DNA of 64,000 nt. Source: a virus. The notes under the pieces are model-generated. The model worked only from the letters and a program-made list of their open reading frames with translations. It was not told where the DNA came from and searched no databases. The translations under genes and the position numbers were made by a program. The DNA lies in IMG/VR virus record IMGVR_UViG_3300027712_001108, positions 1-64,000 of that record; one strand, given 5' to 3'. Below, piece after piece: positions 22,005-49,440 of this stretch (position 1 is its first letter; every line of letters begins with the position of its first letter).

Positions 22005-22916
22005 TTACTTCAAAATTGATTTCCAGTGATATATGGTTCTATCTATACCTTCGCTGTATGAAATTGCAGGCTTCCATCCGGTTAGTTTCGTAAGTTTTTC
22101 ATTTCCGCTGTTTAACCACCATATTTCGCCATGACGTGGATCTTTTGTATTCCAATTTATAGTGCCATTCCAGTTAAGCTGCTCTGCTATATAATTTGCG
22201 CAGTCTTTTATTTTTCTTGGATCATTAGGACCTATTGTGAATATATTTTTTGCACATTTTTCTCTGTTTTCAATAACAGTCATCCATGCGTCTAACAAGT
22301 CATCTATGTAGATAAAATTTCTATAAGGTTCTGCATATCCTAAATTACACACATTACCAGTTATCATCTGGCTTATAATATGCTCTGTAACAAAAAAGTC
22401 ATTGTCTTTTCTTCCGTATGCATTTGTCTGCCTAATAGCAGCCCATTCTAATCCATATGCTCGTCCAGCATATTCAAGATATTTTTCGCAACCATATTTT
22501 GCAACTGCATACGGCGCATTTGGGTTAGGTTGTGTTTCTTCAGTGAAAATAACAGGTATTTTAAATGTGTTGGTTTGTTCAATTTCGTCTGATATTGGTT
22601 GCCATCCATACACTTCCATAGTGGATGCAAAAACAAAATATGGCATATTCTGTAATTTACTACATGCTTCAATTAGATTTACAGTTCCTATATAATTTAC
22701 TTCGCTGAAGCTTACTTGTTCATAGAAACTTTTTTGAACTTCTGTTCTTGCTGCCAAATGTATAACAATATCTGGTGCTGTTTCTTTTATTTCGATGTTA
22801 ACAGCTTTGTGATCTGTTAAATCACTTTTGAGAGATACAACTGATCCAATTTTTTGTAATCTGGCTATAAGATGTTGTCCTATAAATCCGCTGGAACCTG
22901 TTAATAAAATTTTCAT
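22005..22916 (-). CDS. NAD-dependent nucleotide-sugar epimerase/dehydratase
   Basis: TGSSGFIG, HLAA, YAVAK (YxxxK), RNFIYIDD. Confidence 0.93.
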   Translation of the reverse strand: MKILLTGSSGFIGQHLIARLQKIGSVVSLKSDLTDHKAVNIEIKETAPDIVIHLAARTEVQKSFYEQVSFSEVNYIGTVNLIEACSKLQNMPYFVFASTMEVYGWQPISDEIEQTNTFKIPVIFTEETQPNPNAPYAVAKYGCEKYLEYAGRAYGLEWAAIRQTNAYGRKDNDFFVTEHIISQMITGNVCNLGYAEPYRNFIYIDDLLDAWMTVIENREKCAKNIFTIGPNDPRKIKDCANYIAEQLNWNGTINWNTKDPRHGEIWWLNSGNEKLTKLTGWKPAISYSEGIDRTIYHWKSILK

Positions 22917-22943
22917 TGCTAATTTCTTACTGCTAATATTGTG

Positions 22944-24428
22944 TTATGATCTAGTATATATTTTAATATTGTATTCGTTTTCAAATGCAGCAGCATCAGC
23001 TTCGTTGTTTACCATAGGTTGTCCTTTGATGTTGAGACTTGTGTTAACTAACATAGGGCATCCGGTCTCGCTATACCATCTGCGCAGTGTTTGATATAAT
23101 CCCATGTGCTGTTTGACATTTACAGTCTGTACCCTACTGGTACCATCTATATGTACTATACCGGGAAACCGAGTAGGTTCGCGACATTTGACAGTATATT
23201 GCATGTATGCATGATTATAATCTGTCATATCGAAGTATTGATTTGCATGTTCTTCTAGTATTACAGGTGCAAATGGTCTAAATGCATCTCGTCTTTTAAC
23301 AACATTTAAACGTTCTTGAATATTAGCTATGCGAGGATCTGCTAGCAAGCTGCGATTACCCAATGCTCGCGGCCCAAACTCTGCACAGCCATTGGCAACA
23401 CCTACAACTCCGCTCTTGTGTAATTCGCTTATCAGTTTACCTAATGGATATAACCCATCTATACAATGTCCCAAGTATGGGCCTTCCCAGTTGACATGTT
23501 GTTTTAGATATGCCAGTGCAGCACCAAGACTGTTGCCTGCATCTCCTGGATTTGGCATTATCCAAATGTTTTCCCATATACCTTGTGCTGCAATTGCGGC
23601 ATTTGCTACACAGTTCAATGCACAACCACCACTTAGTACAAGATTATCTGAGTTTGCTGTGGACTTTAAACATGTACTGATGCGTAATACAATATCCGTG
23701 AATATTGCTTGAGCACCAGCAGCTAAATTATGTACATCGGTAATATAAGGTTGCCAATTTAAAATACCTCTATGCATGTTGACTTTACAACGATAAAACG
23801 GCCAGCGGTTGGTTATTTCTATCAGTTCATCTAATATTACTTGCTTATATTTGTCGGGGTCGCCAAATGCAGCCATACCCATTACAATGTATTCTTCTTC
23901 GTTGGGTTTGAATCCACAGCGTTGCGTAATTGCTGTATAAAATAAACCAAGACTGTTTGGGTAGTGTGCAGCAGCAATCTTTTTAAGACTTATACCATGG
24001 CCATACCATGCAGTTGTGGTATCCCATTCTCCAATGGCGTCTATTACCAATATAGCAGCAGTATCAAACCCACTGGTATAGTAGCCACCTGCTGCATGAC
24101 TACGATGATGACTGACAGTATGCATTATTGTGTCTGACATCTGTAGTCTGTTTAAATTAGTACGTGGACCAGTCAAGGTGATATCTGACCATTGACCCGC
24201 CCATATTTCACGTGTTAATTTCAACAAGGGTTTTTCGTGCCATATCAATGCACTGGGTGTACCATAAACCAGTGCAGCATTTATCAAATCTTCAGTTATT
24301 CTGTCGTCGTTTTTTATTTTACTGTATCGTTCACTATGTGCAGCCCATACAATTTTATTGTCGTTGATTATTGAAATTGCTGCATCGTGTCCACCGCCAG
24401 ATATACCCCAAACATTGATATTTTTCAT
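22944..24428 (-). CDS. Carbamoyltransferase (NodU/CmcH/TobZ family)
   Basis: HDAA, ERYS, HHRSHAA, DAIGE, SLGLFY, GGCALNC, EFGPRALGNRSLLADP, FRPFAP, NTSLN; start reset to MKNINVW. Confidence 0.95.
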   Translation of the reverse strand: MKNINVWGISGGGHDAAISIINDNKIVWAAHSERYSKIKNDDRITEDLINAALVYGTPSALIWHEKPLLKLTREIWAGQWSDITLTGPRTNLNRLQMSDTIMHTVSHHRSHAAGGYYTSGFDTAAILVIDAIGEWDTTTAWYGHGISLKKIAAAHYPNSLGLFYTAITQRCGFKPNEEEYIVMGMAAFGDPDKYKQVILDELIEITNRWPFYRCKVNMHRGILNWQPYITDVHNLAAGAQAIFTDIVLRISTCLKSTANSDNLVLSGGCALNCVANAAIAAQGIWENIWIMPNPGDAGNSLGAALAYLKQHVNWEGPYLGHCIDGLYPLGKLISELHKSGVVGVANGCAEFGPRALGNRSLLADPRIANIQERLNVVKRRDAFRPFAPVILEEHANQYFDMTDYNHAYMQYTVKCREPTRFPGIVHIDGTSRVQTVNVKQHMGLYQTLRRWYSETGCPMLVNTSLNIKGQPMVNNEADAAAFENEYNIKIYTRS

Positions 24429-24508
24429 AAGTGCACCTTTTAAATTTCTGGAATAACACAGCTTTACTATACATATATAGTATAATAACAGTAAGATAAG
24501 AATTAAAA

Positions 24509-25741
24509 ATGACAATTTATATATTGTACCACAATGTTAGATCTGACACAATACCGCAATGGAATTATATACCAGATGTCTCAGTACTGTTAAAAAACTG
24601 GCCAACCAATGTAGAACAGTTTGATTTGCGATTAGACAGCATGCCCAATACAGATGTTGCATATGCAAAAATAGAAGATGTGCCTGAGCGTAGCAATTGG
24701 TTATATTCATTGAACAATCTGTATAATCATGATTTATATAGACGCTCAGATTTAACCATACTTGATTATTTTAAGTCTGTGCCTCGTCTTATGTCAGATC
24801 TTATAGCAGGGTATGGTAGAATAATGTATGACGATAGACGCGAAGGATATCTATATCCCAACTATGTAAAGGCGGAAATAGAGGGATTTTTCAAACTATA
24901 CGGTATACCACTAGACAGAGTGGTATTTGCAACTGGTACTGCTAACAGTGCCGACATATTCAGTCGTAATGGTTATACTATGCAGCCATTATACCTACAA
25001 CAATTTGAATTGGAATCAAGTTGTGCTGTACAAAATTGGCCAACTACACCACCGCAACGTCACATAGACCGGCGATTTTTATGCTTTAACCGTTCATATC
25101 AATATAGAGTACATCGATTACAATTGCTAGCTAAAATGTATAGAAGGAATTTATTAGATCAATTCTATTACAGTATGTTAGATGGTGTGGACAGGACAGA
25201 CGTAGTAACATCTGCTATGCGAGTTATGGGAGTAGAACCTAACAGTTATGATACAGCGGGTGCTATGCGTGAACTAAAGTCGCGCATGCCAATGTTATTA
25301 GACACAGATGATTTACAAACCAATCTGGCATGGGTTCACACAGAGTCTGTGGAATCATACTACAATCGCACGGGTATTAGCGTAGTAACAGAAACACTGT
25401 TTCATGACAATGAAATATTTTTCAGTGAAAAGACATGGCATCCAATGCGTATGCAGCAACCATTTATATTGGTAAATGGACCTGGGTCGCTACAGCATTT
25501 GCGAGATCTGGGGTACATGACATTTGACCATTGGTGGGACGAAAGTTATGATACAATAGTCAATTCCTATGAGCGACTGGATGCCATAGAACAATTGATA
25601 ACGGATATTGCAGCATGGCCAGACAGTAAATTTATACAGTTTGTAAAGGAATCTCAAATTGTTTGTCAACATAACTTGGCTCATTTGGCAACCGCACACA
25701 CTCGCATCGATTATAACCAACGACTTATTGCACTGTTTTAG
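24509..25741 (+). CDS. Putative glycosyltransferase-like protein
   Basis: FLCFNR...HR, ISVVTET, FFSEKTWHP, QPFI, LRDLGYMTF, WDESYD; paralog at 42121-43380. Confidence 0.55.
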   Translation: MTIYILYHNVRSDTIPQWNYIPDVSVLLKNWPTNVEQFDLRLDSMPNTDVAYAKIEDVPERSNWLYSLNNLYNHDLYRRSDLTILDYFKSVPRLMSDLIAGYGRIMYDDRREGYLYPNYVKAEIEGFFKLYGIPLDRVVFATGTANSADIFSRNGYTMQPLYLQQFELESSCAVQNWPTTPPQRHIDRRFLCFNRSYQYRVHRLQLLAKMYRRNLLDQFYYSMLDGVDRTDVVTSAMRVMGVEPNSYDTAGAMRELKSRMPMLLDTDDLQTNLAWVHTESVESYYNRTGISVVTETLFHDNEIFFSEKTWHPMRMQQPFILVNGPGSLQHLRDLGYMTFDHWWDESYDTIVNSYERLDAIEQLITDIAAWPDSKFIQFVKESQIVCQHNLAHLATAHTRIDYNQRLIALF

Positions 25742-26375
25742 CAGCTCGTTTGGCCTCGGGTGTTAATATGCTTTTAACATGATCATCTAACCAATATGGA
25801 TCAGCTGCATGTATATATTTTGTATTGGCATCTAGTTTGAGTATATCGTCTATTTGCGGATCATCCCAGCTTAATGGGAAGTTCAACCAATGTGACAGAC
25901 TTTTGATGTATTGTCTACGATACAAGTACAACAATTCCTGGCCAATGTAAAATGGCGGCACAGACATCCATTGCAACAGTTGCGGCATATTACCCCATGT
26001 TGGCCCGCCGCGCAAACGAGTCTGTTGGTATGTGAGTATGTTTTGATCTCGGCCTATGACCACAGGCTGTACATCAATGCCAAGACTTTCTACTTTTGAC
26101 ATAAAATCAAAAATAGGAGGCACTTTAGGCAACCAATTTTCTATGTAGGGATTTGATATACTGGTCACTGCATACTTTTTACCACCCATTATATCAAGAT
26201 CGATCTTGTCTATGTTGTTCCAATAGTAGTTGAACGGTTCTTGATAATGTGGAATAAAATATCCATCTGGCCTGAGAGCATCTTTCCATCCATGCACATC
26301 TGTATGCATGCTGAATATTTTGCCAAACAAATGATTACCAGACCCTTGCGGACCGAATAGAACAATCATTTTCAT
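25725..26375 (-). CDS. Sulfotransferase-like / P-loop protein
   Basis: N-terminal VLFGPQGSGNH, VIGRD. Confidence 0.5.
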   Translation of the reverse strand: MKMIVLFGPQGSGNHLFGKIFSMHTDVHGWKDALRPDGYFIPHYQEPFNYYWNNIDKIDLDIMGGKKYAVTSISNPYIENWLPKVPPIFDFMSKVESLGIDVQPVVIGRDQNILTYQQTRLRGGPTWGNMPQLLQWMSVPPFYIGQELLYLYRRQYIKSLSHWLNFPLSWDDPQIDDILKLDANTKYIHAADPYWLDDHVKSILTPEAKRAAKTVQ

Positions 26376-27001
26376 ACAGTCATTACCTTTATGCCGCTGG
26401 TCTTATAATCTTGCAAATATTCTCGTGGCGGCAATGCAATATGCAATGCATTGGCCAATTGGTGATTGTTGGTAATATCCAATCTTGCACTATGTCGTGC
26501 GGCAAAATCTATAATATCTGCATTTTGTTGATCTATATGCATGGCCATCATTTCTAAATTGCTGTAGTATTGATAGTTGGGATAGGTTATGTTGAACTGC
26601 CCACAGCGTACCCACCATCCAAGGCATGCGTCATTGGGACGATGTACAAGAACTATCGTACAGTCCGGCCACGTTTCTCGTATATAATCTAGATGATGGC
26701 AAAATACATGACTTTTGATAATGCGTACACCCTCTCCTGAGAATGGTCTATCGAATTCTGCTTCTGCTGTGTGCTTGGCCAGTTGTGGTAACTGCATAAA
26801 CTGTTTGCCGAACTCCATACCAGGATCGAAGTATGCACCAAGATGCATGAGATCTGGCTGTCCCCATGCAGAATGATAATATGTTCTATTGCTGCTGTAG
26901 TCAGACCTGTCAATGTCTATACTGTAGTAAATGTTTTTGCACACCGAGCTCCATTTGGAACCCGGTGCACCTGCCATAAAAATATATTTTGGCAATGTCA
27001 T
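26372..27001 (-). CDS. Sulfotransferase-like / P-loop protein
   Basis: IFMAGAPGSKWS, IIKSH, IVLVHR. Confidence 0.55.
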   Translation of the reverse strand: MTLPKYIFMAGAPGSKWSSVCKNIYYSIDIDRSDYSSNRTYYHSAWGQPDLMHLGAYFDPGMEFGKQFMQLPQLAKHTAEAEFDRPFSGEGVRIIKSHVFCHHLDYIRETWPDCTIVLVHRPNDACLGWWVRCGQFNITYPNYQYYSNLEMMAMHIDQQNADIIDFAARHSARLDITNNHQLANALHIALPPREYLQDYKTSGIKVMTV

Positions 27002-27004
27002 TGT

Positions 27005-28462
27005 CTAGTCTTTGACTGCGGTCAATTTGGTAATGCCCAATGCAAGTGCACCAGATCCAAACACAGCAAGACAAGTGCCAAGCACTGCAATGTTAGGGCC
27101 GCCGCCGAAGTTTTGACCGTATACATAAGTCGAGAACCCAACTAGGTACGCAATCAAAACACCCCAGAACATACCAGCTTCGTTGACTAACTTTTGATTT
27201 AGTAGACTAAACATCAGTGGGAACCAAACTGTTGCACGCAAAATACCAAAGAACAGGAAGATGGTAATCAATGTCATACCCGGCCAGTTGGCAAGTGTAA
27301 GACCTGCTGCAATCAACAGAACCATGCCTATACGACCATATGCAATGCTGGACTCGTCGCCTGCATCTGGCTTGGCCATGTTTTTGACATCATGCCCAAA
27401 TATATTGGACACAGAGCTAAGTTGCGAATCCAGCACAGACACCAGTCCTGCGAACAACATAAACAGATACATTATAGCAGCCCATGCAGGCAGCAAACTG
27501 CCAACTGTGATGATGTTCACATACCCCAACAGTTCTTTTGGAATCTCATAATGCATGCCAGCAGCAGTGAATCCCAGTAGACCAGTCAGCAAGGGTGTGA
27601 TGACAAAGATAAATGCACCGCCTACAAATGACTTGATAACTGCACCTTTGCGCACTGCAAATGCACGTTGATAGAACGCATTATCGCCCCATGGTGCACC
27701 CATGTGGCCTATGGCAGTTGAGAAGCCAAATCCCATGAACACGCCCAGTGCAAAATCAGTGCCAATGATACTGCGACCATTGCCAGTGATGCCGCCCAGT
27801 CCTAGATCTACTATATCCCAGCCGCCTGCTGTGCCAATTGCCCATGGAACAATTACAGCCAGGCCCAATACCAACACGGTCAATTTGAAAATTTCAGTGA
27901 CAACTGATGCTTTCAATCCGCCACGTATGGTATAAGTCAATGCAATTGCTGCAAGTATAAAGCTAACAGTATGATAGCTCATGCCTGTCAGCACTTCAAC
28001 AGACTTGGATCCTGCCAGTACGTTGATGGCAAAAGAACAGATTGCCAACATGCCAAGTTCTATCATAAACAGACCTTGTACTCGTTTGCCGAACTGTTCT
28101 TTGAGATAACCTGAAATGGTAAATCCATCTGGCTTCTTGTTGCGCAGTCTATTGGCAAACCAAGAAAAGAATATCAGCGACAAAAAGTTGCCTATACAAA
28201 ACCAAAACAGTCCCACAAGGCCATTTTGGTAAGCTTGCTGTGCTGATATGAACATACCAGGTGCCCACATCCATGCTGCACCTGTGCTCATTGCACCTTG
28301 TAAAGGACTGAGTTTGCGTTTTGCAACAAAGAATCCTTCCTTGCTAGTGGCGTATCCGCTAGCAAATACCCATGTCAATCCAAACACAATTGCAGCATAC
28401 ATTGCAAGAACAATGCCACCTGTGCCGGGAGTAAACAAGGGGAATAATGTAGTAAAATCCAT
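27005..28462 (-). CDS. Sodium:solute symporter (SSS family)
   Basis: About 13 hydrophobic segments; FFVAKR, AAWMWA, GGLKASVVTE, YQRAFA; start MDFTTL after GGAG. Confidence 0.9.
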   Translation of the reverse strand: MDFTTLFPLFTPGTGGIVLAMYAAIVFGLTWVFASGYATSKEGFFVAKRKLSPLQGAMSTGAAWMWAPGMFISAQQAYQNGLVGLFWFCIGNFLSLIFFSWFANRLRNKKPDGFTISGYLKEQFGKRVQGLFMIELGMLAICSFAINVLAGSKSVEVLTGMSYHTVSFILAAIALTYTIRGGLKASVVTEIFKLTVLVLGLAVIVPWAIGTAGGWDIVDLGLGGITGNGRSIIGTDFALGVFMGFGFSTAIGHMGAPWGDNAFYQRAFAVRKGAVIKSFVGGAFIFVITPLLTGLLGFTAAGMHYEIPKELLGYVNIITVGSLLPAWAAIMYLFMLFAGLVSVLDSQLSSVSNIFGHDVKNMAKPDAGDESSIAYGRIGMVLLIAAGLTLANWPGMTLITIFLFFGILRATVWFPLMFSLLNQKLVNEAGMFWGVLIAYLVGFSTYVYGQNFGGGPNIAVLGTCLAVFGSGALALGITKLTAVKD

Positions 28463-28463
28463 C

Positions 28464-29195
28464 TTATTCTCCATGTAGATGTTTGTGAATCGCCAGTTCA
28501 ACAGGACTCGGTTCTGTCTTACTGGATAGTGTGAGTAATGCATCTGTATAAGGCTGCTGTAACAGTTGCATCTGTTGTAGTGTAGATGTAAACAACTGGC
28601 TGTCAATCATTGCCCATCCAAGATGCGCTGCAATTTTTGTATATAGCACAGTGGGATCTGCTGTTAATATTTCTGTCATGCCCAAGCGCATAAAGCGTGT
28701 ATCTTCGATTGTGCGCACGGTTGTGTTAGCCATGTCAAATTGCAAACGATCATATAGTTGAGAGTCGTTGCTGATCTCCATCATACCGTACCAACGGTCT
28801 TTGTCCATTTGACGTTCATTGCGCAAGTATCTAACATAGTGTTCGCTGTCATCCACACATTCTATCAGTATCGCACGATCTGTGGGTCTCATCCATTCTA
28901 CGGTCTTTGCCACCGCAACATTGATATCTTCGCCTACACCTGCGGGCCAACCTGCATATATTGAATAGCCCCATGGGTTATCGTGGTCGCGAGAATCCGC
29001 CAATGCTTGCATAAAATCTGTGTTGCGTTTGATTTTACAAAAGCTGGCATATGCATGACTGGACCCATTGGGTTTCAATGGATTGTCAAGTATTGCAGGT
29101 TCGTGCTTGCTGCGTTCTAGAGAAAATCTGTCAACCATCCAACTGACAAAGCTGCCAAATGATCCGGGCTGATACAGTATGCAAACAGTGGTCAC
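28464..29195 (-). CDS. Sulfotransferase-like hypothetical protein
   Basis: GTG start in a GTGA overlap; ILYQPGSFGSFVSW, GSSH. Confidence 0.5.
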   Translation of the reverse strand: MTTVCILYQPGSFGSFVSWMVDRFSLERSKHEPAILDNPLKPNGSSHAYASFCKIKRNTDFMQALADSRDHDNPWGYSIYAGWPAGVGEDINVAVAKTVEWMRPTDRAILIECVDDSEHYVRYLRNERQMDKDRWYGMMEISNDSQLYDRLQFDMANTTVRTIEDTRFMRLGMTEILTADPTVLYTKIAAHLGWAMIDSQLFTSTLQQMQLLQQPYTDALLTLSSKTEPSPVELAIHKHLHGE

Positions 29196-29938
29196 AGCTT
29201 GACCACTCGCATTGGCAGATGCACAGCAGCCTGTGCTGCTGCTACAATCTCTAAAGTCCTTGCAGTTTGTTTGCCAGTGATTTGGAGTAGTGGACGAGAT
29301 TTCCAACCTGCATTGACAGTGGCATGCGGCATGTCCTGCCATTCCCATGTAATACAAGTGCCTGCGGTCCATTGATGGTATAGGGCATTGCCAAACATCC
29401 ACGCTTGGCCCATTTCCCAATCGGCTAGCATTACTGCGAATCTGCGCATGATAGCAGGATTTTTATCCATGTCAGTTACTTTGAAACTGTTCTCACGCTC
29501 AGGTCGTGCTGCAAAATTGTCAATGTGAAAATGCAGCATTTGACCAGTGGTTTGATTATGAAATTTAATCATGGGATCTTCTAGTCCAAGATAATCTGCA
29601 ATTTGGTGAAATACTGCAATATCTTCTGCGGCAGTTCTTGAAAACACTTCTGCATGCGGACTTGCGCCCGCATTGATAAGGTCTTGTTCTTCTGCGTTGG
29701 CAGTGTACAATCCTTGTTCTGCAATGGTTTTATTGAAATTGTTTCTTGTGCCCCAGGTGCTGACCTGTGTGCGTGGCATACATTCTGATATGGCATCTGT
29801 AAAATCTGTATCGAAAATGCAAACAGGGGTGTAACTGTCTTTGCCCAACTGTGGTGCACGAGTGTTATCAAAATGCCAACTGCTCTTAGATGTGGTATAT
29901 TCCCATCTACTACCGTTCCAATCTTCGTATTCTGACAT
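29192..29938 (-). CDS. 2OG-Fe(II) oxygenase / cupin-like protein
   Basis: HFHID (HxD), distal PHATVN, RPLLQITG. Confidence 0.7.
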   Translation of the reverse strand: MSEYEDWNGSRWEYTTSKSSWHFDNTRAPQLGKDSYTPVCIFDTDFTDAISECMPRTQVSTWGTRNNFNKTIAEQGLYTANAEEQDLINAGASPHAEVFSRTAAEDIAVFHQIADYLGLEDPMIKFHNQTTGQMLHFHIDNFAARPERENSFKVTDMDKNPAIMRRFAVMLADWEMGQAWMFGNALYHQWTAGTCITWEWQDMPHATVNAGWKSRPLLQITGKQTARTLEIVAAAQAAVHLPMRVVKL

Positions 29939-30067
29939 TTTTATACCCATTCTTTCAAATATATTACAGTATATATCATTTTTATTGGTTCTATAAAAAA
30001 AATGTGTAAAATTTAGAATAAATTATACGATGCGTATTTTACAATCTGCCATACATGGAAAATTGCA

Positions 30068-30802: not shown

Positions 30803-30814
30803 TGAACCGATATT

Positions 30815-31891: not shown

Positions 31892-31894
31892 TGA

Positions 31895-32647: not shown

Positions 32648-32671
32648 AATTATTCCTTAAATTTTACGTAT

Positions 32672-38484: not shown

Positions 38485-38502
38485 GCAAAATTAATCCTAA
38501 CT

Positions 38503-40766: not shown

Positions 40767-40788
40767 GATAATCTTTCTGTTTAAATTA

Positions 40789-41970
40789 TTATATATCGAG
40801 TACAGTTCTGTTTCTCGTATCACCATAATGTACAACAGTTATACCATTCTGTGCATTCGCTGTTCGCCAAGGATCTATTACAACACTACCTGGTGCCATC
40901 ATGTTTAGTATGTTGGTATAATCTCTCTGGTGTCCCAACAAGTATGTAGACGGGTTTTCTCTATCTACATTGTCATAGCTAATATCAGCACCTAACTGAA
41001 CACAGTAGTGTCCCACCAACATGCCATAACTACCATCTGTGTAAGGCACACCGGGTTTAAAGCTTTTGCCTAGTATGTGTACAGGTAATCCGTACTTGAC
41101 CAATGCGTGTGCTAGATTTTCTGCCTGTACTTCCCTTGCACGCATAATAGAATCGAACAGATCGTAACCAAGATTTAATTCTTCTGCAAGCCATCGCAGT
41201 GCAATATTATCACGAGGATGACAGGGTCCGCCATCACCCATACCGGGTTTCATATATGCAGGGCCCATGATACGATATGTGCTGTCTGCCAATGCTTTTG
41301 CAACTACATCTACATTCATATGCCCTATGCGTTCTGCTACATCTTGTATCATGTTTACTAGACTAAGTTTGGCAGAAATAAAAGTATTGTAGAATATTTT
41401 AGTGCTTTCCATTTCTTCCCACGTACCTGTCACAGTTCGTGCAGTTCTACCTGATACGTGTTCGTAGAATGTTAGCAGCGAGTTTACAGTATCGGTATAT
41501 TCACCATCTGCTGTGCCAACCATAATCATTTCGGGATCGCAGAAATCTTCTGCTACTGTACCCATTGCTATAAGATAAGGATTGTATATCAACTGTGCAT
41601 TGGGTATAACAGGTGCCAATAGTCTTCGTACTGTACCAGGCAACACTGTGCTGATTAATACAACTGTATTGTTTGAATCCACATACTGATTAATTTCGGT
41701 CAATACTGAAATTACATACGAGTAATCAAAGTCTTTGTTTTCAAGATGGCTGGTTGGTTTGCTGCCATCGTAATTGGGATCATGGGGTGTTGGCACAGCA
41801 ATAAAAATCAATTTACTATTTGATACTAGGTATTTGAGATCATTTGTTATATTGACAACATTGCTTGTAAACGGTTGGATATCATATCCAATAACAGAAT
41901 GTTTGGATGCCATTGCTTCTGCAACAGGCATGCCTAGCTTGCCTAAACCTATAAATCCAACAGTTGCCAT
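40789..41970 (-). CDS. UDP-glucose/GDP-mannose dehydrogenase family protein
   Basis: GLGKLG, AVPTP, STVLPGT, catalytic K (TKIFYN), GGPCHPRD, GKSFKP. Confidence 0.93.
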   Translation of the reverse strand: MATVGFIGLGKLGMPVAEAMASKHSVIGYDIQPFTSNVVNITNDLKYLVSNSKLIFIAVPTPHDPNYDGSKPTSHLENKDFDYSYVISVLTEINQYVDSNNTVVLISTVLPGTVRRLLAPVIPNAQLIYNPYLIAMGTVAEDFCDPEMIMVGTADGEYTDTVNSLLTFYEHVSGRTARTVTGTWEEMESTKIFYNTFISAKLSLVNMIQDVAERIGHMNVDVVAKALADSTYRIMGPAYMKPGMGDGGPCHPRDNIALRWLAEELNLGYDLFDSIMRAREVQAENLAHALVKYGLPVHILGKSFKPGVPYTDGSYGMLVGHYCVQLGADISYDNVDRENPSTYLLGHQRDYTNILNMMAPGSVVIDPWRTANAQNGITVVHYGDTRNRTVLDI

Positions 41971-42014
41971 TATATTACCCCGTGTACAGTACTACAGTAT
42001 AATGCAATAACTCG

Positions 42015-42119
42015 TTATCTGTATATAAATGGATCGCGTTTACGCAATTCTTCTATGCGTTTTTTAAAGGCTTTTTTATCTTTGTAACGTTTAATAAGAC
42101 GTTTAATCCAGTTGAACAT
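42015..42119 (-). CDS. 34-aa basic peptide ending DPFIYR
   Basis: MFNWIKRLIKRYKDKKAFKKRIEELRKRDPFIYR*; AAGGA upstream; below the ORF-track cutoff. Confidence 0.6.
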   Translation of the reverse strand: MFNWIKRLIKRYKDKKAFKKRIEELRKRDPFIYR

Positions 42120-42120
42120 G

Positions 42121-43380
42121 TTATAATCCTTTGTTGTAAATTGACATAAATTTATCGTATGCAGGCGTAGTAAACCAGTTCCTGCTAAGGAACCATTGCT
42201 GATTGTGATGACAGATTTCTTTCACTTGCTCTAGCCAACTCCATTTGTCTTTCACATAACTGATGTTTTGTAAATTGCGTACAATAGCAGAAACTCTATC
42301 TGCAAATGGTGCATCGTCGTAGCTTTCATCCCATAGTGTGTCAAATGTTTCAAACCCCCACGACTTTAATTTAGCCAAAGTTCCAGGGTGTGCCAACAAC
42401 ATAAATGGTTGCTGCGCCCATAACGGCTTCCATAATTTTTCACTAATAAACAAGTTATGCGGTTCATCAAATGCATGTGTTTCTGTTACCACACTTGCCC
42501 AACTGTTGAGATAGATACTGGGATTAATCTGCATGGCTTTGTTGTTGTCAAAATCTGCATCATCCACTACCAAAGGCAGCACAGCATTGGCTTTGTCTAT
42601 TACACTTTGTGGCACATCATGCCGTGTCCAAAAATCATATACCAGCTTGTTGTGGCTTATCATTCCCTGTAAATGCAAATCCTGCTCTATTAAACGCATT
42701 GCCATAACTTCTCTGTGATTGCGACTAACACGATTCAAACAGTTAAACAGTTTTACTGTATGTGGCCGTTGTTTGGCTTGTCTGTGATCATCCCATGTCA
42801 CTGCTGTGCTACGACGCAAATTCAATTGCTGCATATACATCAAATGTGGAAACCCAATGACGCCAATGCGTTCTCGTATACTGTGACTATCGCACCACTC
42901 TGCATAGCCGCGTTCTTCTAAATCATTGCCACTTAAAAACAGCATACTTGCGGCGGGTATTGCATTATCGTTACATAGTTTATGTAGGTATGCATATAGT
43001 TTGGTATCATAGAACCCTTCGTTTAGATTGTCTACAACCAACAATGCACGACCTGCACGAGCATCGTCTAACACCACACTTGGTACAAAATTAATAAATG
43101 GTTCGTATCCAAATTCATTACCAGGCCACCCTGTCCAGTAACCAGCATCGTTCCATGTGCCTATATTATATGCATATCTCTCGGGTCTGTTATCCAATCC
43201 ACTATGATGCCAATGATGATCGGGTCTATCCCACCAGTTTAATCGCCAATAGTGAAACATATTAGCTACAGGAAAACGACCCGACTTTAATTCCCATCTG
43301 GGCCCGTGTGTGGTATGCGGGCATGCTGTCATAGTCCTAAAGCGTGCAGGGTCGTCAAATACCCAATGTACTGCTGTCAT
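42121..43380 (-). CDS. Putative glycosyltransferase-like protein (paralog of 24509-25741)
   Basis: FNCLNR...HR, SVVTET, FISEKLWKP, QPFM, GFETF, WDESYD. Confidence 0.55.
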   Translation of the reverse strand: MTAVHWVFDDPARFRTMTACPHTTHGPRWELKSGRFPVANMFHYWRLNWWDRPDHHWHHSGLDNRPERYAYNIGTWNDAGYWTGWPGNEFGYEPFINFVPSVVLDDARAGRALLVVDNLNEGFYDTKLYAYLHKLCNDNAIPAASMLFLSGNDLEERGYAEWCDSHSIRERIGVIGFPHLMYMQQLNLRRSTAVTWDDHRQAKQRPHTVKLFNCLNRVSRNHREVMAMRLIEQDLHLQGMISHNKLVYDFWTRHDVPQSVIDKANAVLPLVVDDADFDNNKAMQINPSIYLNSWASVVTETHAFDEPHNLFISEKLWKPLWAQQPFMLLAHPGTLAKLKSWGFETFDTLWDESYDDAPFADRVSAIVRNLQNISYVKDKWSWLEQVKEICHHNQQWFLSRNWFTTPAYDKFMSIYNKGL

Positions 43381-44621
43381 GGTCTTAACTGTGCCAATCT
43401 AGGCAAATAATCCTGCATTTTACGTGATTTTAATTGGTCAAGTAGATCAGCATCGTGCCAAAACTGCTCCCATGAATCTTCAGGCCAGTCTTTGAAATTG
43501 TATATTACCATGTCTGTTGCAGCCGTATCCATGTAATTGAGCGCACCTTGCCAACTGCTATAGTTACGTTGAGTTTCGTGTCCCAACAGCGACTGTTCTA
43601 CTTCTGCACGTATTTCCCGTTTGGCATGTCTGGGTAATAATCGTACATCTTGATATGTGGGTTGATAGACAATGTTCACAAACGGCAAGCCTGCAAAACA
43701 CTGTTGCTGGGTAGTCCATTCAATAAGTTCTGCAACGTTGAAACAATTGTAAATTCCAAACGTGGTATGCAGTTCCAACTTGATATTAGGTGCTTGCAAT
43801 TCTGCAATCCGCTGTAGGTTATGACTGATAATACGCCAATCGCTGTTCTGTCGTATATAATCATTGGCAATACCCACAGCTTCTACGCTGACATTGATGT
43901 TTACCCATTGGAATGATTGCCACATTTTTAACAGCTTTGCAGGTACATGTGTGAGATTGGTATTGTAACTGATCTGTTGAAACTGTGCCAATCCCTGATC
44001 GATGCAGGACTGTAATATATCCATATGCTGTTTGACAATCAGTGGTTCGCCACCTAAGAAATTCATATGCGTAACAGAAGGTAAACTGCGATTTATCAAC
44101 TCTATTGCACCTGGGTCTTCGAACCATATTTGATGCGCACTGCGAGGATCTGCTTCAACTGATTCCCACCTGCCCAGTTTGGCCAGATCATTTTGCCACA
44201 AATGACTGTTCATCCAGTTACACATCCTGCAAACCAAATTGCATTTATTACCAAATGTAATATCCAAATATTGTATTTCGGCACCTGTTAGCAGTGTGCC
44301 ATCTGCTGCAATTGGTTTGGCCGTAGGCAGTATTCCATCTTTGGTATATACATCGTTCCATATTTGCCTAAAGCTAACACCGCCGTTATCTTCTATTTTC
44401 CAACATTTGCTGCAAGTTGGATGACGTTCACCTGCTTGTATAGACAATCTAACTGCTTTGTGTAGTTGACTGTTTAGTACATCCAATGGATCTGCACAAT
44501 CGTTGACAAATGGTTGACTGTAATCTTCCCAATGTCCGTGATTGTTGCAGCAGAGTCTAGGACGGCCAGGGCCATCCAAACTCAAACTGTTGTAAGGTAA
44601 TACACAAAATACATCTGTCAT
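43377..44621 (-). CDS. Radical SAM protein with N-terminal twitch domain
   Basis: CVLPY...CC, CSKC, CNLVCRMC, GGEP. Confidence 0.92.
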   Translation of the reverse strand: MTDVFCVLPYNSLSLDGPGRPRLCCNNHGHWEDYSQPFVNDCADPLDVLNSQLHKAVRLSIQAGERHPTCSKCWKIEDNGGVSFRQIWNDVYTKDGILPTAKPIAADGTLLTGAEIQYLDITFGNKCNLVCRMCNWMNSHLWQNDLAKLGRWESVEADPRSAHQIWFEDPGAIELINRSLPSVTHMNFLGGEPLIVKQHMDILQSCIDQGLAQFQQISYNTNLTHVPAKLLKMWQSFQWVNINVSVEAVGIANDYIRQNSDWRIISHNLQRIAELQAPNIKLELHTTFGIYNCFNVAELIEWTTQQQCFAGLPFVNIVYQPTYQDVRLLPRHAKREIRAEVEQSLLGHETQRNYSSWQGALNYMDTAATDMVIYNFKDWPEDSWEQFWHDADLLDQLKSRKMQDYLPRLAQLRP

Positions 44622-45601
44622 GCTCGCTGCCTTTTGGGTATACTCATGTCAGTTCCGCAATGACAATGTGTACGTGGACAAACAACTGTACTGTATAAAT
44701 GATTCAAATTCAATGGTGTGTTCATATTGCCAATAACACCCGATACTCCGCAACTACCCATTGTAATATCACCATTTATTGCTATGTTAATGCTAGTACC
44801 AATATCACATTGCCAACCCAAAAAGAAATTGCGTCGTTCGGCAGTAAGACGATTGCTGTTCACAGGCCGTACCGTGCCGTCTGCATAGTGTTCTACTACT
44901 AAACTGTGTCCTGCACGGTTATCTGGTGTAGGCAATGACTGCTTGCTACGGTTGCTGTTCTTCATTAACCATTCGACTTTTGCAGGATCGTCATATGCAT
45001 ATGGATCGGCAGCAGTACTCATTTCATCTAGTATAGGTACATATTCCATTGTGACATTTTGCATAGTTGCCCATATCTCATCTGCACGTTCCAACATGTG
45101 ATCCCAATGTGATTCTGCCATCATCATACGAACAGCAAGATAGTTTACTTTGTCTTGTAGAAACTGTGCAGTTTCCAAAAATCTATCATGCTTTACCCAG
45201 CCAGGGTGGTAACTGGCAACCACATCATCGAACCTATGATAGTTACGTTCCCACCATACCAGAGGCTTTGACAAATTGGTATTGATTGCCAATGTGACTT
45301 TGTCTGGCAATATATTAGACAAATAATCGCATATAGGTAATAGAGCAGGCCAGTGGGTGGGTTCGCCGCCGCTAAAGAATACTTTTACTTTGCTGTATTG
45401 TTTGCCTGCTAATCCGTGAATCAGTGTATCCAAATTGCTAAGGTAAACTTCAACATTTAAGTTGGGTGTGTCTCCGCCCCAATTACCAGGATTGCAATAA
45501 CCACATCGAAAATTGCAAGTGTTACTGGTTTGCCATGTAATATTGAGTGTGAGTCCGTCTTGTGCTTCTATGGCAACTAATGCATTGTTTTCTAATATCA
45601 T
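44618..45601 (-). CDS. Radical SAM protein with C-terminal auxiliary-cluster domain
   Basis: CNFRCGYC, GGEPT, SYH, WQCDIG...GSC...CPRTHCHC. Confidence 0.92.
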   Translation of the reverse strand: MILENNALVAIEAQDGLTLNITWQTSNTCNFRCGYCNPGNWGGDTPNLNVEVYLSNLDTLIHGLAGKQYSKVKVFFSGGEPTHWPALLPICDYLSNILPDKVTLAINTNLSKPLVWWERNYHRFDDVVASYHPGWVKHDRFLETAQFLQDKVNYLAVRMMMAESHWDHMLERADEIWATMQNVTMEYVPILDEMSTAADPYAYDDPAKVEWLMKNSNRSKQSLPTPDNRAGHSLVVEHYADGTVRPVNSNRLTAERRNFFLGWQCDIGTSINIAINGDITMGSCGVSGVIGNMNTPLNLNHLYSTVVCPRTHCHCGTDMSIPKRQRA

Positions 45602-46866
45602 TTGTTAGTATTAATACCATTTTTTAATTGATCAATCAAGTCTGGCCACAATACAGAATGGTCCATACTGTGCATGCTGTCGTTAACCGCCAACCAGTCA
45701 ATCAGCCGTTGTTGTGCTACGGTAGTAGCAGTTGTTTGTGACAACAACGTGGTACTCATATAATCTAAACCGTCGTGAAAATTACAATGACCGCCTCTGA
45801 CTATGGGTCGCAATGCAGTACGTAATTTGGTAATCGCTGCTGTACGATACTCTATTGGTATAACTTTGGCACTGAGATGATGCGGAAAGTCCAACATAAT
45901 AGGATACCATATGATATTTTTATCGTAGTCTTCTGCCATGTATATCAGCCACTGAATCAATGGTTCTATACTGTTGTAATTAAGGGCACCTACTACTGTG
46001 TACACTTTGAGTGTTTTTGCCACGTCATGCTTTAGATATTTTTCAAAATTACGAACTTTTTCTGTCCATACTGTGGGATAACGTATGTATTCGTCTATTT
46101 TATTCAAACCGTCTATGCTGATTTGAACTTCTGTGTTTTCGAATTTTGCAAGCCTGTCTAACAGTTTGTAATTCCACACTGTGCAATTGGTAGTAAAGCT
46201 GATATGGCATGTGGTATTGCCTGCATCCAACAGTATATCAAGGTACTGATAGATATTTGCATCCATAGTTGGTTCGCCGCCTGTTATATACAGACGTTTA
46301 AGAGTGGGTGCCATTTTGCGAAAATTTAGTTTGCTTTGTTCTGTGTTTATATAGCCATTATCTGCATACTCCACAGTTGTTTCACTGCGCCATTGGTTGT
46401 CTAACCATTCCGGCAATGCTGTATTTTCTATGGCATGTTTACGTTCTTCAGCTATTTTGCTACTGCTTCCACTCCAGCATGTAACGCATTGCAAATTACA
46501 AACAGTACCCAAACGTAATTCCAAACTGTCTGGCATGTCTGTGGCAACTGTGCGCAAGTCTTGCGCCAGTGTTGCAGCATAGTCACGGTTGGCGTGTGTA
46601 CGAGGACTGGGATTGCCAGCTGCTTCTATATTGTTACAGACTTTACAGTCTTTAACTCGTTCTCCTGCTAACATGCGTTCTCGTACTGCCTGCATATATG
46701 CGCCGTTCCATATATCATCCAGTGACTGGGTATTCCATTTTGCAGTGGTATAATCCTGATTGCGAATAACAATGTTGTCACTGATGTTGCAACAGAGTTT
46801 GCATTCTCCCTGAGGGGTCGTGTTGATATTACGCCACGCCAATGCACACAGGCTATCAGATTGCAT
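45598..46866 (-). CDS. Radical SAM protein with N-terminal twitch domain
   Basis: CALAW...CC, CKVC, CNLQCVTC, GGEP, SIDG. Confidence 0.92.
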   Translation of the reverse strand: MQSDSLCALAWRNINTTPQGECKLCCNISDNIVIRNQDYTTAKWNTQSLDDIWNGAYMQAVRERMLAGERVKDCKVCNNIEAAGNPSPRTHANRDYAATLAQDLRTVATDMPDSLELRLGTVCNLQCVTCWSGSSSKIAEERKHAIENTALPEWLDNQWRSETTVEYADNGYINTEQSKLNFRKMAPTLKRLYITGGEPTMDANIYQYLDILLDAGNTTCHISFTTNCTVWNYKLLDRLAKFENTEVQISIDGLNKIDEYIRYPTVWTEKVRNFEKYLKHDVAKTLKVYTVVGALNYNSIEPLIQWLIYMAEDYDKNIIWYPIMLDFPHHLSAKVIPIEYRTAAITKLRTALRPIVRGGHCNFHDGLDYMSTTLLSQTTATTVAQQRLIDWLAVNDSMHSMDHSVLWPDLIDQLKNGINTNK

Positions 46867-48064
46867 GGTCAATGCCCCTTAATTCTGGAAAGATATCTCG
46901 CCAACTTTCGTGACGAATTTTGTCTAATTTTGCAGTTTGATGTGCCCACAGATGCAGCAATTCGCTGTCATCTTGCTCATTCATAAATGATATTATACCA
47001 GTGAACGCAGCTATGGTTTTATCTGCTGCTCCATTAGTTGACAACCAATCACAATGTCGATTTATTTTATCAGTTACACGTTGCTTTATCTGTTCGGGTA
47101 GTACTCGTGTGCTAAAATATCGCGGACTTGTCAGTTGATTAATGCGTATATTATCAATGCCAACCAGTTCATGCTGCACCCAATCTTTGTGAAAATCACT
47201 AAGGTGTTTGACATTTAACAAACTAACAGTGGGAGTTATTTCAAAATATACATGGGGTAATTCTTGTAACATGCGTTTGCGATTGGCAACAACATCTTTC
47301 CATATCATGTTCTTACGTATATACTCGCCGCGTTCTCCACTACCATCAAGACTTGCAGCCACTTGTAAATTAGGGAATTGTCTCCATAATTCAAACAAGT
47401 CGCGTTGTTTGTAATCCAGTTTGGTGAAATTGGTAGTATAGTTGAGTTTTACATCTGTTTTACCTATGCTGATCCAATGATCCAGTATACGATAGTGTTC
47501 TTCAGTCATAAGACTTTCACCACCTGCAAAGTACACTTCTTCAGTTGTAGACAAATGTGGTAACAGTTGCTCCCAAAAATCATCGCCTTGGTTTATATTC
47601 AATATTCGCGGTGCGGTATGGGTATGATCCAGTGTAACTGCATCGTCGTACCATGCACTACTCAACTGCGGGCCGCATGTTCTACAACGTAGATTACATA
47701 TATTGCTAAATCGCACATCAAAGTATGCAAGATTTACTTTTTCAACAGAGCCATCTTCTGCTGTGCTGTCTACCACAGGTTGATGATGTGCATATGCTTG
47801 ATTGCTGTTGTTACGCAGTGTAAATGTGCCGTGACGTTCCACATCATAACAACGATTACATGATGCAGATTCTTTACCTGCCAACATGTTTAATCGCAGT
47901 TCTCGCATGCGTTCACTATTCCATATGTCTTTGATAGTAGAGTCATTGGTATTGCCAATGGTCCAGTTTGTATCGCTCATGCAGCAGGGGAATACATCTC
48001 CATTAGGCCACATATGCATATGCACCCAGGGCATCATACAAAACACCTTATTGTCGGTAGTCAT
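46856..48064 (-). CDS. Radical SAM protein with N-terminal twitch domain
   Basis: CMMPW...PCC, CNRC, CNLRCRTC, GGES, SLDG. Confidence 0.92.
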   Translation of the reverse strand: MTTDNKVFCMMPWVHMHMWPNGDVFPCCMSDTNWTIGNTNDSTIKDIWNSERMRELRLNMLAGKESASCNRCYDVERHGTFTLRNNSNQAYAHHQPVVDSTAEDGSVEKVNLAYFDVRFSNICNLRCRTCGPQLSSAWYDDAVTLDHTHTAPRILNINQGDDFWEQLLPHLSTTEEVYFAGGESLMTEEHYRILDHWISIGKTDVKLNYTTNFTKLDYKQRDLFELWRQFPNLQVAASLDGSGERGEYIRKNMIWKDVVANRKRMLQELPHVYFEITPTVSLLNVKHLSDFHKDWVQHELVGIDNIRINQLTSPRYFSTRVLPEQIKQRVTDKINRHCDWLSTNGAADKTIAAFTGIISFMNEQDDSELLHLWAHQTAKLDKIRHESWRDIFPELRGIDHAI

Positions 48065-49440
48065 TCAATTTTTCCACATTCGTTATAGAAATCAACCAGT
48101 TCCGGAAATGTATCTACAAACTTGGTATTTCTGCGTTTATCATGCTCAGTGAACCATGCATAAAAATCTCTGCGACCTGTATACAGTTTGTCACTGCTAT
48201 AATTAGTCGTCTCCATATACCGTACCACACGACGAAATTTATCTACTTCTAAACTGCCAAATAGATTCTTATCCATGTCATCTTCGTTGGCTTCCATAAA
48301 TGCAAGACATTCATGCAAGTATGGCAAGAATTCTGCTTTGGGTAGCAGGTTGATATCGTACTGCAACGGTTCTCTTAGATATGGAGTATCAAAGCGTACA
48401 TTGCGCATGGTTCTACGCTGTTCTGTCGGCGGCGGCGCATACTGCGTTCTCCATTCCAACATTTTAGACAACAGCAATTTAAAACGCGGTACACTGAGTA
48501 TATTGTAAGTCATCATCATACTAACTGCTTGACCAGACAGTGTCATGTATGTGTTTAAGTTCTGTTCCCACTGTGTTATATCAAGTCCTGTGCGTATATA
48601 CTCTGCTTGCGTTCCCCATGTATCAATACTGGTAAACAGTGTAAAGTCTTTGATACACTTGCGGTCTATTAGATCTTTGATTTTGTTAGCAAGACGTGTA
48701 ACCAGTATGGGTTTTACACCCAGGTTGCTGTTTATGTTGAGTTCTAACTTGGGCATTGGGTTGTTAGACAAATCCTCTAGCAGTGTCCATGTGCTTTTGT
48801 GCAGCAAGGGTTCACCGCCTGTTATACGCAGAATATTAACACTGTTGCGCACACTGGGCCACCACTTCCACCATGCATCTACAAACGGATTAGATTCCTC
48901 TTCGAAGATGGTCATCCAATCTATATCGCAGCGATGATTGGTTACCATGTCGTATGGACCGTGATCGCGTATCTCATTATAGAACTTGCTGGATGCCTTG
49001 GGATGGCAGTAACCGCATTTGAAATTGCATTCGTTGCCAAAGCTGACTTCTATGTATTCTGGTGCAACAGGAAAGTCGGCACCTTTGGCTTTGATCTCGT
49101 CGTAGCGGTCCTGCCTAAAGATACTGCTGTTGCGTATGTGTCTATCGCTGATCAAATCCTTGTCAAGATTTTCAATGTTCCAGCAGTATTGGCATCCGGC
49201 TGGCTTGCGCCCGTTCAACAATGCTCTACGTTCTGCTTTCTTTTCTTCTGTATTGTGTAATGCACTGGGATCCCACCCTATTCTTTTCTCATCTATCTTG
49301 TGAGGTGCAGGATGATAGCAACTGTGTGTTTCACCTGTCTGCAAGTATATAGTGGTATGATGCCATTTGGCCATGCAGAATGTTGGACTGATGGCATCCA
49401 TCAGAGGTCTGAGTTCATCTATTCGTTTTCTATCTACCAT
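48061..49440 (-). CDS. Radical SAM protein
   Basis: CMAKW...SCYH, CQYC, CNFKCGYC, GGEPLL; start reset to MVDRKR. Confidence 0.92.
   Translation of the reverse strand: MVDRKRIDELRPLMDAISPTFCMAKWHHTTIYLQTGETHSCYHPAPHKIDEKRIGWDPSALHNTEEKKAERRALLNGRKPAGCQYCWNIENLDKDLISDRHIRNSSIFRQDRYDEIKAKGADFPVAPEYIEVSFGNECNFKCGYCHPKASSKFYNEIRDHGPYDMVTNHRCDIDWMTIFEEESNPFVDAWWKWWPSVRNSVNILRITGGEPLLHKSTWTLLEDLSNNPMPKLELNINSNLGVKPILVTRLANKIKDLIDRKCIKDFTLFTSIDTWGTQAEYIRTGLDITQWEQNLNTYMTLSGQAVSMMMTYNILSVPRFKLLLSKMLEWRTQYAPPPTEQRRTMRNVRFDTPYLREPLQYDINLLPKAEFLPYLHECLAFMEANEDDMDKNLFGSLEVDKFRRVVRYMETTNYSSDKLYTGRRDFYAWFTEHDKRRNTKFVDTFPELVDFYNECGKIE

Follow-up and report, generated by a model that had tools for sequence, protein, structure and literature searches.

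A phage-borne island of eleven radical SAM enzymes and its possible role in sugar editing

What could a phage do with eleven radical S-adenosylmethionine (SAM) enzymes encoded in a single run of genes? The question is raised by positions 22,005 to about 49,440 of a 64,000-nucleotide stretch of viral DNA (positions 1 to 64,000 of the IMG/VR record IMGVR_UViG_3300027712_001108; this whole stretch is the window of what follows). An original prediction, made from the DNA letters, had described here a phage-encoded biosynthetic island in which eleven CxxxCxxC proteins are interleaved with sugar-activating, glycosyltransferase-like (GT-like), carbamoyl-transferring, sulfotransferase-like and oxygenase-like genes. 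We find that the island belongs to a giant phage, that its ends are conserved at the same site in an independent complete phage genome, and that its gene families recur in ordered cassettes in other phages. We give a probability of about one half to the reading that it encodes an essentially cytoplasmic pathway that builds a sugar structure and edits it chemically.

A conserved island site in giant phages

The window makes up the first 64 kb of one 157,923-bp viral contig (CheckV completeness ~30%), whose parent is an uncultured giant phage of ~520 kb when whole. The contig carries a family-B DNA polymerase whose nearest deposited relatives are those of Sinorhizobium phage Phosso and Agrobacterium phage Atu_ph07 (~50% identity), and its other phage genes encode DNA and RNA ligases, a collagen-like tail fibre, a holin-like protein, a sigma-70 factor and NAMPT. 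Compared protein by protein, the window is collinear with the 53-117 kb region of G001 (IMGVR_UViG_3300017917_001342), a genome of 518,643 bp with direct terminal repeats that is rated 100% complete. G001 has an island at the identical site, flanked by the holin-like gene and the sigma factor; both flanks are collinear, and the island ends are kept at 55-88% protein identity.

Naming each gene by its lower coordinate in the window, one conserved end consists of the carbamoyltransferase (g22944, 72% identical to its G001 counterpart) and a GT-like gene (g24509, 55%). The other consists of the nucleotide-sugar dehydrogenase (g40789, 67%), a second GT-like gene and the genes from g43377 to g48061. 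The middle of the island differs between the two phages: here it holds a symporter, sulfotransferase-like and oxygenase-like genes and six radical SAM genes, whereas G001 has four other radical SAM genes of the N-terminal-twitch type (N_Twi, described below) and a B12-like radical SAM gene instead. The GC content is 0.33-0.34 at 30-38 kb of the window, against 0.41-0.44 in the remaining island and 0.42-0.48 in the flanks. This low-GC segment contains a methyltransferase-like gene, a radical SAM gene with a SPASM domain, a B12-dependent-type radical SAM gene and two N_Twi genes, and has no counterpart in G001. Positions 30000-38000 look like a recently swapped-in module. Together, the conserved ends, the differing middle and the drop in GC argue for a conserved site with exchangeable modules and not for a mis-join. 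The island is truly phage-borne, as had been claimed, given the phage genes on the contig and the same island site in a collinear complete genome.

Within the island we count 24 open reading frames (ORFs) of at least 200 aa, all but two of them on the minus strand. The packing is as tight as originally described, with 21 of the 23 junctions overlapping or no longer than 27 nt, and one of the two larger gaps (150 nt) contains a 34-aa ORF.

Radical SAM families and the cassettes that carry them

The CxxxCxxC motif is present in all eleven of the ORFs for which it had been reported, and every one of their products matches the Radical_SAM and/or SPASM models of Pfam or an NCBIfam radical SAM model. 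PF04055 scores above its gathering threshold (GA) in 6 of the 11; the others fall below GA or, in the case of g30815, match SPASM instead, and are backed by NCBIfam radical SAM models. The enzymes fall into four groups, comprising six N_Twi proteins, three short STM4011/viperin-like proteins, one putative B12-binding protein and one SPASM protein.

The six N_Twi proteins, all encoded on the minus strand, exceed the curated 170-bit cut-off of NF033640 (N_Twi_rSAM) over their full length (276-412 bits). They are g34756 (34756..35985, 306 bits), g35982 (35982..37646, 338 bits, with an N-terminal extension of ~95 aa), g43377 (43377..44621, 311 bits), g45598 (45598..46866, 276 bits), g46856 (46856..48064, 412 bits, the closest to the family consensus) and g48061 (48061..49440, 303 bits). 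The last is the first gene of the minus-strand block, and its likely ATG start agrees with the end coordinate of 49440 first given for the island. In an alignment of 17 N_Twi paralogues, the N-terminal cysteines C9, C28, C69 and C72 are invariant, as are C123, C127 and C130. The first four are putative auxiliary-cluster cysteines placed ahead of the radical SAM core. The island proteins thereby share with NF033640 a four-cysteine N-terminal auxiliary motif followed by CxxxCxxC, and in these phages the family is expanded to 9-16 copies per genome. Mutual identity among the island paralogues is just 21-29%, so they do not stem from recent duplication.

The NF033640 cut-off is not reached by g30815, g38503, g39762 or g44618. 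Three of these are paralogues of one another whose best matches outside their own family are STM4011-family and viperin models, far below cut-off: g38503 (38503..39762, minus; Radical_SAM 1.1e-13), in which ~200 N-terminal residues precede a viperin/STM4011-like core, and the short proteins g39762 (39762..40826, minus; Radical_SAM 1.2e-9; NF038073 2.9e-11, below cut-off) and g44618 (44618..45601, minus; Radical_SAM 29.7 bits). The fourth, g30815 (30815..31891, minus), has CNAACPGC at residue 21 and a C-terminal SPASM domain (21.7 vs 21.5 bits), with weak NCBIfam matches. The class-B-type protein g32672 (32672..34765, minus) scores 56.5 bits with Radical_SAM (5.2e-15) and 26.2 bits with the B12-binding model (7.6e-6; GA 32.1 bits). 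Its best NCBIfam models are those of C-methyltransferases of ribosomally synthesized and post-translationally modified peptides (RiPPs) and of PhpK families (TIGR03975, TIGR04479), all far below cut-off; by these likenesses it is a probable C- or P-methyltransferase type.

The AlphaFold model of g46856 (pLDDT 94) resembles the solved radical SAM enzymes SkfB, CteB, anSME, SuiB, BlsE, viperin and DesII at TM ~0.4, a superfamily-level likeness, so the substrate is not readable from the fold. As NF033640 itself is a catalogue entry drawn from sequence alone, belonging to it does not reveal the reaction.

In the rest of the contig we found four more radical SAM genes (72985-74463, 76766-77851, 88809-89978 and 95507-96685), three of them N_Twi above cut-off. 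The 158-kb contig, ~30% of the genome, thus has 15 radical SAM genes in total, including nine N_Twi. G001 has 16 N_Twi genes above cut-off. Two N_Twi genes of that genome outside its island, among them the best-scoring one, lie at G001:C1:454543-459449, no more than 3 kb from a gene of the thymidylate synthase family.

When IMG/VR was scanned with g46856, 29 loci came up, each carrying several genes of the island type in a conserved gene order. In a quick IQ-TREE maximum-likelihood tree, g43377, g45598, g46856 and g48061 each fall into an orthogroup of their own, with members from different phage lineages (SH-aLRT 98-100; 98 for g43377, 99 for g45598 and 100 for g48061); the placement of long branches in this tree (G0_76766, G0_88809, G0_95507, g34756 and g35982) is unsure. 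As separate and old orthogroups, these four N_Twi groups point to separate, conserved roles. Scattered homologues that do not co-occur, which would have spoken against a common system, are thus not what the 29 loci and four orthogroups display.

The viral cassettes are of two types. Type A cassettes, on T4-like marine contigs, carry a GT-like gene, two N_Twi genes and often a B12-type radical SAM gene, followed by homologues of g45598, g44618 and g43377, for a total of five or six radical SAM genes. The order g46856-g45598-g44618-g43377 is common to the window and these T4-like marine cassettes at 27-49% identity, and orthologues of g44618 (35-39% identical, in 13 loci) occupy the same cassette position in the T4-like marine phages. 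Type B cassettes, in phages of 220-370 kb, carry two g48061-like genes, a g46856-like gene and further N_Twi genes, then SGNH proteins, a carbamoyltransferase and often an adenosine 5'-phosphosulfate (APS) kinase. In five type B loci (L018, at 20297-21097, L022, L027, L032 and L043), the APS-kinase-domain protein directly follows the carbamoyltransferase block.

The 1564 metagenomic homologues of g46856 at E<=1e-10 include none with an informative name, megablast of 30-50 kb of the window against 50,697 deposited phage genomes gave no match, and tblastn with g46856 found among deposited phages only single genes of ~25% identity in Vibrio (KVP40-like) and Ralstonia phages. Literature searches combining radical SAM with cyanophage and carbamoyltransferase, with jumbo phage or with megaphage found no account of the cassette. 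The only trace was a passing remark that ascribes 12 radical SAM genes to one T4-like marine viral genome (PMC5332604). This agrees with the earlier statement that no characterised viral pathway of this type was known.

Cellular relatives were sought with a narrower alignment, that of all N_Twi paralogues being too divergent for a genome scan. The matches are 34-45% identical proteins, mainly from Bacteroidota and Bdellovibrionota, some of them on megabase chromosomes; some of the others are probably mis-binned phage contigs. The most informative locus, L091, lies on the Crocinitomicaceae chromosome OZ252050.1 and combines three N_Twi genes with a nucleotide-sugar dehydrogenase, an epimerase, a carbamoyltransferase and an SxtJ-family protein. 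It further encodes a UbiA-GT4-GDSL fusion, a sulfotransferase, PhyH and WelO5 oxygenases, an ABC ATPase and a CysN-like protein. Set beside this locus, the phage island is seen to draw on the same set of tools. At 18 cellular loci, the N_Twi neighbours (n = 135) are mainly proteins with radical SAM (16), SPASM (13), PhyH (6), GT2 (5), ABC (3) and PAPS_reduct (2) domains. By analogy, these cellular loci are our best evidence for a role of the family in a glycan or glycoconjugate context.

One metagenome-assembled genome, 'Elusimicrobia MJ-2014_bin-0981', has 13 contigs that each carry a g46856-like gene at ~40-42% identity (L048, L051, L054-L060, L065, L068, L075 and L078). This bin probably contains phage contigs and does not represent a cellular expansion.

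Sugar genes, carbamoyl transfer and a micro-protein

Hidden Markov models (HMMs) confirm four further calls of the original prediction, namely the NodU-type carbamoyltransferase, the nucleoside diphosphate (NDP)-sugar epimerase, the NDP-sugar dehydrogenase and the Na+/solute symporter. The NodU/CmcH-type O-carbamoyltransferase g22944 (22944..24428, minus) has a Kae1-like N-terminal domain (Carbam_trans_N, 4.2e-42, 145 bits) and a YrdC-like C-terminal domain (Carbam_trans_C, 2.7e-50, 171 bits), both above GA. Its relatives in the Protein Data Bank (PDB) are NovN, GdmN and TobZ (E 6e-58 to 6e-38), and the His/Asp metal-motif residues H136, H137, H140 and D325 do not vary among 17 sequences; the score stays below that of the NodU equivalog (135 vs 1000 bits). 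The longest ORF extends to 24515 (TTG), with ATG at 24428 as the likely start. A short-chain dehydrogenase/reductase (SDR), g22005 (22005..22916, minus), is an NAD-dependent NDP-sugar epimerase/dehydratase (Pfam Epimerase 1.1e-39, GDP_Man_Dehyd 4.7e-35); it scores below the cut-off of all NCBIfam equivalogs and has no counterpart in G001. The nucleotide-sugar dehydrogenase g40789 (40789..41970, minus), of the UDP-Glc/GDP-Man family, has N-terminal (UDPG_MGDP_dh_N, 2.3e-18) and central (6.4e-17) domains above Pfam GA. The symporter g27005 (27005..28462, minus, with 28462 the likely start; Pfam SSF 5.5e-22; TIGR00813 1.6e-34, below cut-off) has ~12 hydrophobic segments and is the sole membrane protein of the island, such segments being absent from every other island protein.

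For the remaining enzyme calls, the earlier description held in part. The two GT-like proteins, g24509 (24509..25741, plus) and g42121 (42121..43380, minus), are indeed paralogous (30% identity, E 1e-22); their GT-B assignment stands at the level of fold, with no Pfam or PHROG family match. The AlphaFold model of g42121 has a pLDDT of 70 and a pTM of 0.71, its family keeps a TEK-like motif (E314-K315), and its Atlas neighbours are viruses only, GT10 being a lead at 0.80. A profile of the GT-like family matched only Integrator among PDB sequences, which we judged spurious.

The four proteins called sulfotransferase-like differ in what supports them. The 209-aa g26372 (26372..27001, minus) has a sub-threshold match to Sulfotransfer_3 (E 0.0024, 18.6 vs 27 bits), and g37633 (37633..38484, minus) is a sulfotransferase-fold candidate by its similarity to Sulfotransfer_1/3 clusters in the ESM Atlas (TM 0.50-0.56 over ~200 residues), with no HMM match. 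For the 216-aa g25725 (25725..26375, minus; N-terminal loop GPQGSGNH) and for g28464 (28464..29195, minus; loop QPGSFGSF), the call comes from a glycine-rich loop, and neither has a Pfam, PHROG or NCBIfam match. The ORF of g28464 reaches 29420, and a GTG start at 29195 avoids a 229-nt overlap. The family of g26372 has 4066 metagenomic homologues, many of them 60-80% identical and almost all unnamed; one carries PF13469 (Sulfotransfer_3).

Two 2-oxoglutarate (2OG)-Fe(II) oxygenases had also been proposed. The family of g29192 (29192..29950, minus) keeps the HxD...H triad (H142-x-D144 and H209, invariant in a 7-sequence alignment), recurs in other cassettes and stands directly after the carbamoyltransferase in loci L018 and L019, which makes g29192 a putative Fe(II)/2OG-type oxygenase; it has no HMM match, and hhalign against PhyH-like proteins was not significant (probability 0.1%). 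The call finds no support in g31895 (31895..32647, minus), a 250-aa protein with no Pfam, PHROG or NCBIfam match. PHROGs has no family for the sulfotransferase-like or oxygenase-like proteins. The proposed methyltransferase, g30068 (30068..30802, plus), has a sub-threshold match to Methyltransf_25 (E 0.0029) and is a possible SAM-dependent enzyme.

The 150-nt gap beside g42121 contains a gene missed in the first reading: an ORF at 42015-42119 (minus) that begins 1 nt past the g42121 stop and encodes a basic 34-aa micro-protein ending in RKRDPFIYR. Similar micro-ORFs (33-36 aa, with one longer form) occur in 17 loci, with K27, D29, P30, F31 and Y33 invariant. In 13 loci the micro-ORF lies 0-0.7 kb upstream of the carbamoyltransferase, either abutting it or separated from it by just one or two SGNH/DUF6071-like ORFs, and type A cassettes have neither the micro-protein nor the carbamoyltransferase. 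A search of Pfam for homology to DUF5989/SxtK gave no match to the micro-protein at E<=10, and nothing was found in the literature on 'DPFIY'. The idea that the ORF encodes a RiPP precursor was set aside because the ORF goes together with the carbamoyltransferase.

Complex prediction for the carbamoyltransferase and the micro-protein gave an ipSAE of 0.65 (runs 0.61-0.72), against 0.19 for the best control. In calibration, the mark was reached by 58 of 80 solved complexes and 2 of 110 mismatched pairs, counts that are approximate, our own alignments having been supplied. The three runs agree in 100% of contacts, with a partner pLDDT of at least 73. They place the RDPFIYR C-terminus on the Kae1-like domain at residues 41-43, 160-161, 191-205 and 247-252, adjoining the invariant residues H43, D44, D159, G162, E163, H248 and G250. 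The model supports binding, and the micro-protein is likely a partner of the carbamoyltransferase, either as a subunit or as a carbamoyl-acceptor substrate.

A cellular parallel is suggested by the SxtI-SxtJ-SxtK arrangement of the saxitoxin cluster and many bacterial loci, in which the gene of a NodU-type O-carbamoyltransferase has as its neighbour a very small ORF with no known function (PMC2885083). In L091, a 49-aa ORF (6416-6565, minus) with one hydrophobic segment and the ending APFIYSLF lies directly upstream of the SxtJ-family gene and the carbamoyltransferase. We regard this DUF5989-like ORF as a concrete parallel for the micro-protein by analogy: the two share their position, an N-terminal W/F-L-K start, a basic stretch and a C-terminal PFIY. 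The likeness is positional and at motif level, an hhalign comparison of the two giving a non-significant probability of 7%. Unlike its cellular counterpart, the phage micro-protein lacks a transmembrane segment, and the phage island yielded no SxtJ-like membrane protein.

What the island may build

That the island makes a heavily modified glycan or small molecule remains the best-supported reading of the original prediction; we infer a sugar substrate from the enzyme families and from the homologous cellular locus of glycan type, and not from any known activity of the radical SAM enzymes. The virion, which that prediction favoured as acceptor, is a possible one. In such a pathway, the nucleotide-sugar dehydrogenase and the SDR enzyme would make activated sugar acids or deoxy or epimerised sugars, which the two GT-B-type transferases would attach to an acceptor. 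The NodU/TobZ-type enzyme, together with its tyrosine-tailed micro-protein, would add carbamoyl groups, and the sulfotransferase-like, 2OG-oxygenase-like and methyltransferase-like proteins could add further groups by sulfation, hydroxylation or methylation. The targets of the eleven radical SAM enzymes would be unactivated C-H positions of the sugars, the proposed reactions being oxidation, epimerisation, deoxygenation, C-methylation or C-C bond formation, with each of the six N_Twi paralogues having its own role. The APS kinase and SGNH proteins added in other cassettes are consistent with this scheme. As the island proteins other than the symporter are soluble and four cassette-bearing phage genomes, complete or nearly so, have no WbaP- or WecA-type initiating transferase, the glycan may be built on a soluble acceptor or on host intermediates. 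Given that all the enzymes are soluble and that the phage encodes no lipid-carrier machinery, our first guess at the acceptor is a phage protein.

Known pathways offer partial precedents. Radical SAM enzymes tailor sugars in aminoglycoside and deoxysugar pathways (BtrN, DesII, AprD4 and GenK). Like these, the island enzymes have a radical SAM core plus a predicted twitch or B12 domain and are encoded next to genes for nucleotide sugars and carbamoyl transfer; the tobramycin-pathway carbamoyltransferase TobZ is a homologue of g22944 with a solved structure. They differ in that the N_Twi twitch domain stands ahead of the core and not after it, in that the structural likeness stays at superfamily level (TM ~0.4), and in that the island lacks aminocyclitol genes, is phage-borne and holds many paralogues. 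Chloroviruses, mimivirus and mycobacteriophages encode glycosylation systems that likewise have their own nucleotide-sugar enzymes and glycosyltransferases and work in the cytoplasm, independently of host lipid carriers; for the island, the likeness is one of genes. To our knowledge, none of these viral systems has radical SAM arrays or a carbamoyltransferase.

Several observations weigh against a sugar pathway or against its virion form. At TM ~0.4, the solved folds nearest to g46856 belong to generic SPASM/twitch enzymes, peptide maturases for the most part, and do not indicate a sugar substrate; a search for NF033640 members with assayed activity found none. The dehydrogenase scores 144.6 vs 189.8 bits with TIGR03026, which covers residues 38-315, and has no C-terminal domain match. 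The Foldseek top 50 for g42121 are nearly all GT-B, yet at TM ~0.3 and with a best E-value of 9e-4. The sulfotransferase and oxygenase calls are weak, and APS kinase is absent from this contig and from G001. In this genome the island, flanked by the holin-like gene and the sigma factor, lies away from the tail genes and adjoins no structural genes, which gives a virion acceptor no positional support here, and the soluble transferases might just as well use lipid-linked intermediates of the host.

The best-placed rival, though in our view unlikely, takes up this last point and directs the same chemistry at the host envelope: soluble phage enzymes would modify lipid-linked or surface polysaccharide of the host, and could thereby block superinfection or alter the receptor, as in seroconverting phages. 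The closest cellular locus does resemble one for an exported glycan or glycolipid, with its ABC ATPase, UbiA-GT fusion and CysN-like protein; the lack of an initiating transferase in the phage is expected if host intermediates are borrowed; and the island does not adjoin virion genes. However, it contains no flippase, polymerase, exporter or acyl- or lipid-handling gene, and known seroconversion modules have 1-3 genes and not 25.

Peptide or protein chemistry of the RiPP kind, with a peptide or a phage protein as the target of the radical SAM enzymes and a secondary part for the sugar genes, strikes us as more doubtful still. It would fit the peptide maturases SkfB, CteB, anSME and SuiB as nearest solved folds of g46856, the RiPP C-methyltransferase models closest to the B12-type enzyme, and the strictly conserved 34-aa peptide in the island. 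But that peptide travels with the carbamoyltransferase, onto which it is predicted to dock, and not with any radical SAM gene; type A cassettes have five or six radical SAM genes and no peptide; family scans turned up no RRE, leader peptidase or export gene; and structural matches as weak as TM ~0.4 are expected for the whole superfamily.

Glycosyl and radical SAM enzymes are known to take part in the hypermodification of phage DNA. A role of the island in decorating phage DNA bases or making modified nucleotides is nevertheless improbable. Three of the radical SAM enzymes do have their best similarity outside their family to prokaryotic viperins, which act on nucleotides, but at 49-57 bits against a cut-off of 180; two extra N_Twi genes of G001 do lie beside a thymidylate-synthase-family gene, but the genes of this family score as ordinary ThyA (345-365 bits). 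The island showed no signature of a DNA glycosyltransferase or a base hydroxymethylase, and the cellular homologues sit in loci of glycan type and not of DNA modification.

Finally, an artefact in which a cellular polysaccharide locus was mis-joined to phage DNA, or the contig mis-binned, would accord with the GC of 0.34 at 30-38 kb and with the existence of cellular homologues, but we consider it negligible, since the flanks and both island ends are collinear with an independent complete phage genome and the genes of the low-GC part are of cassette type and occur in other viral contigs as well.

The preferred reading, a cytoplasmic sugar-building and sugar-editing pathway, can be taken further as a speculation to which we give little weight. 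The N_Twi paralogues might perform undescribed radical editing of sugars on a glycan that is built in the cytoplasm on a phage protein, such that giant and T4-like aquatic phages coat part of the virion with a carbamoylated, rearranged glycan, with the micro-protein as an obligatory adaptor or carbamoyl acceptor. If the preferred reading is right, a large and widespread set of aquatic phages gives 15-30 kb to glycan editing around a never-assayed enzyme family, and one of the largest uncharacterised viral enzyme expansions would have a function in new radical carbohydrate chemistry. The resulting modification of the virion or cell surface would be relevant to host recognition and phage defence. 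The pair of micro-protein and carbamoyltransferase also gives experimental access to the SxtJ/SxtK-type partners of carbamoyltransferases in bacteria, whose role is so far unexplained.

Promoter and terminator scans gave numbers at chance (82 vs 84 expected and 12 vs 11.9 expected, respectively), and we found no enrichment of TATAAATA. The sigma-70 gene next to the island (49656-51119, plus) is divergent to it and full-length, comprising regions 1.2, 2, 3 and 4 and part of the non-essential region, and its product is 78% identical to its G001 counterpart.

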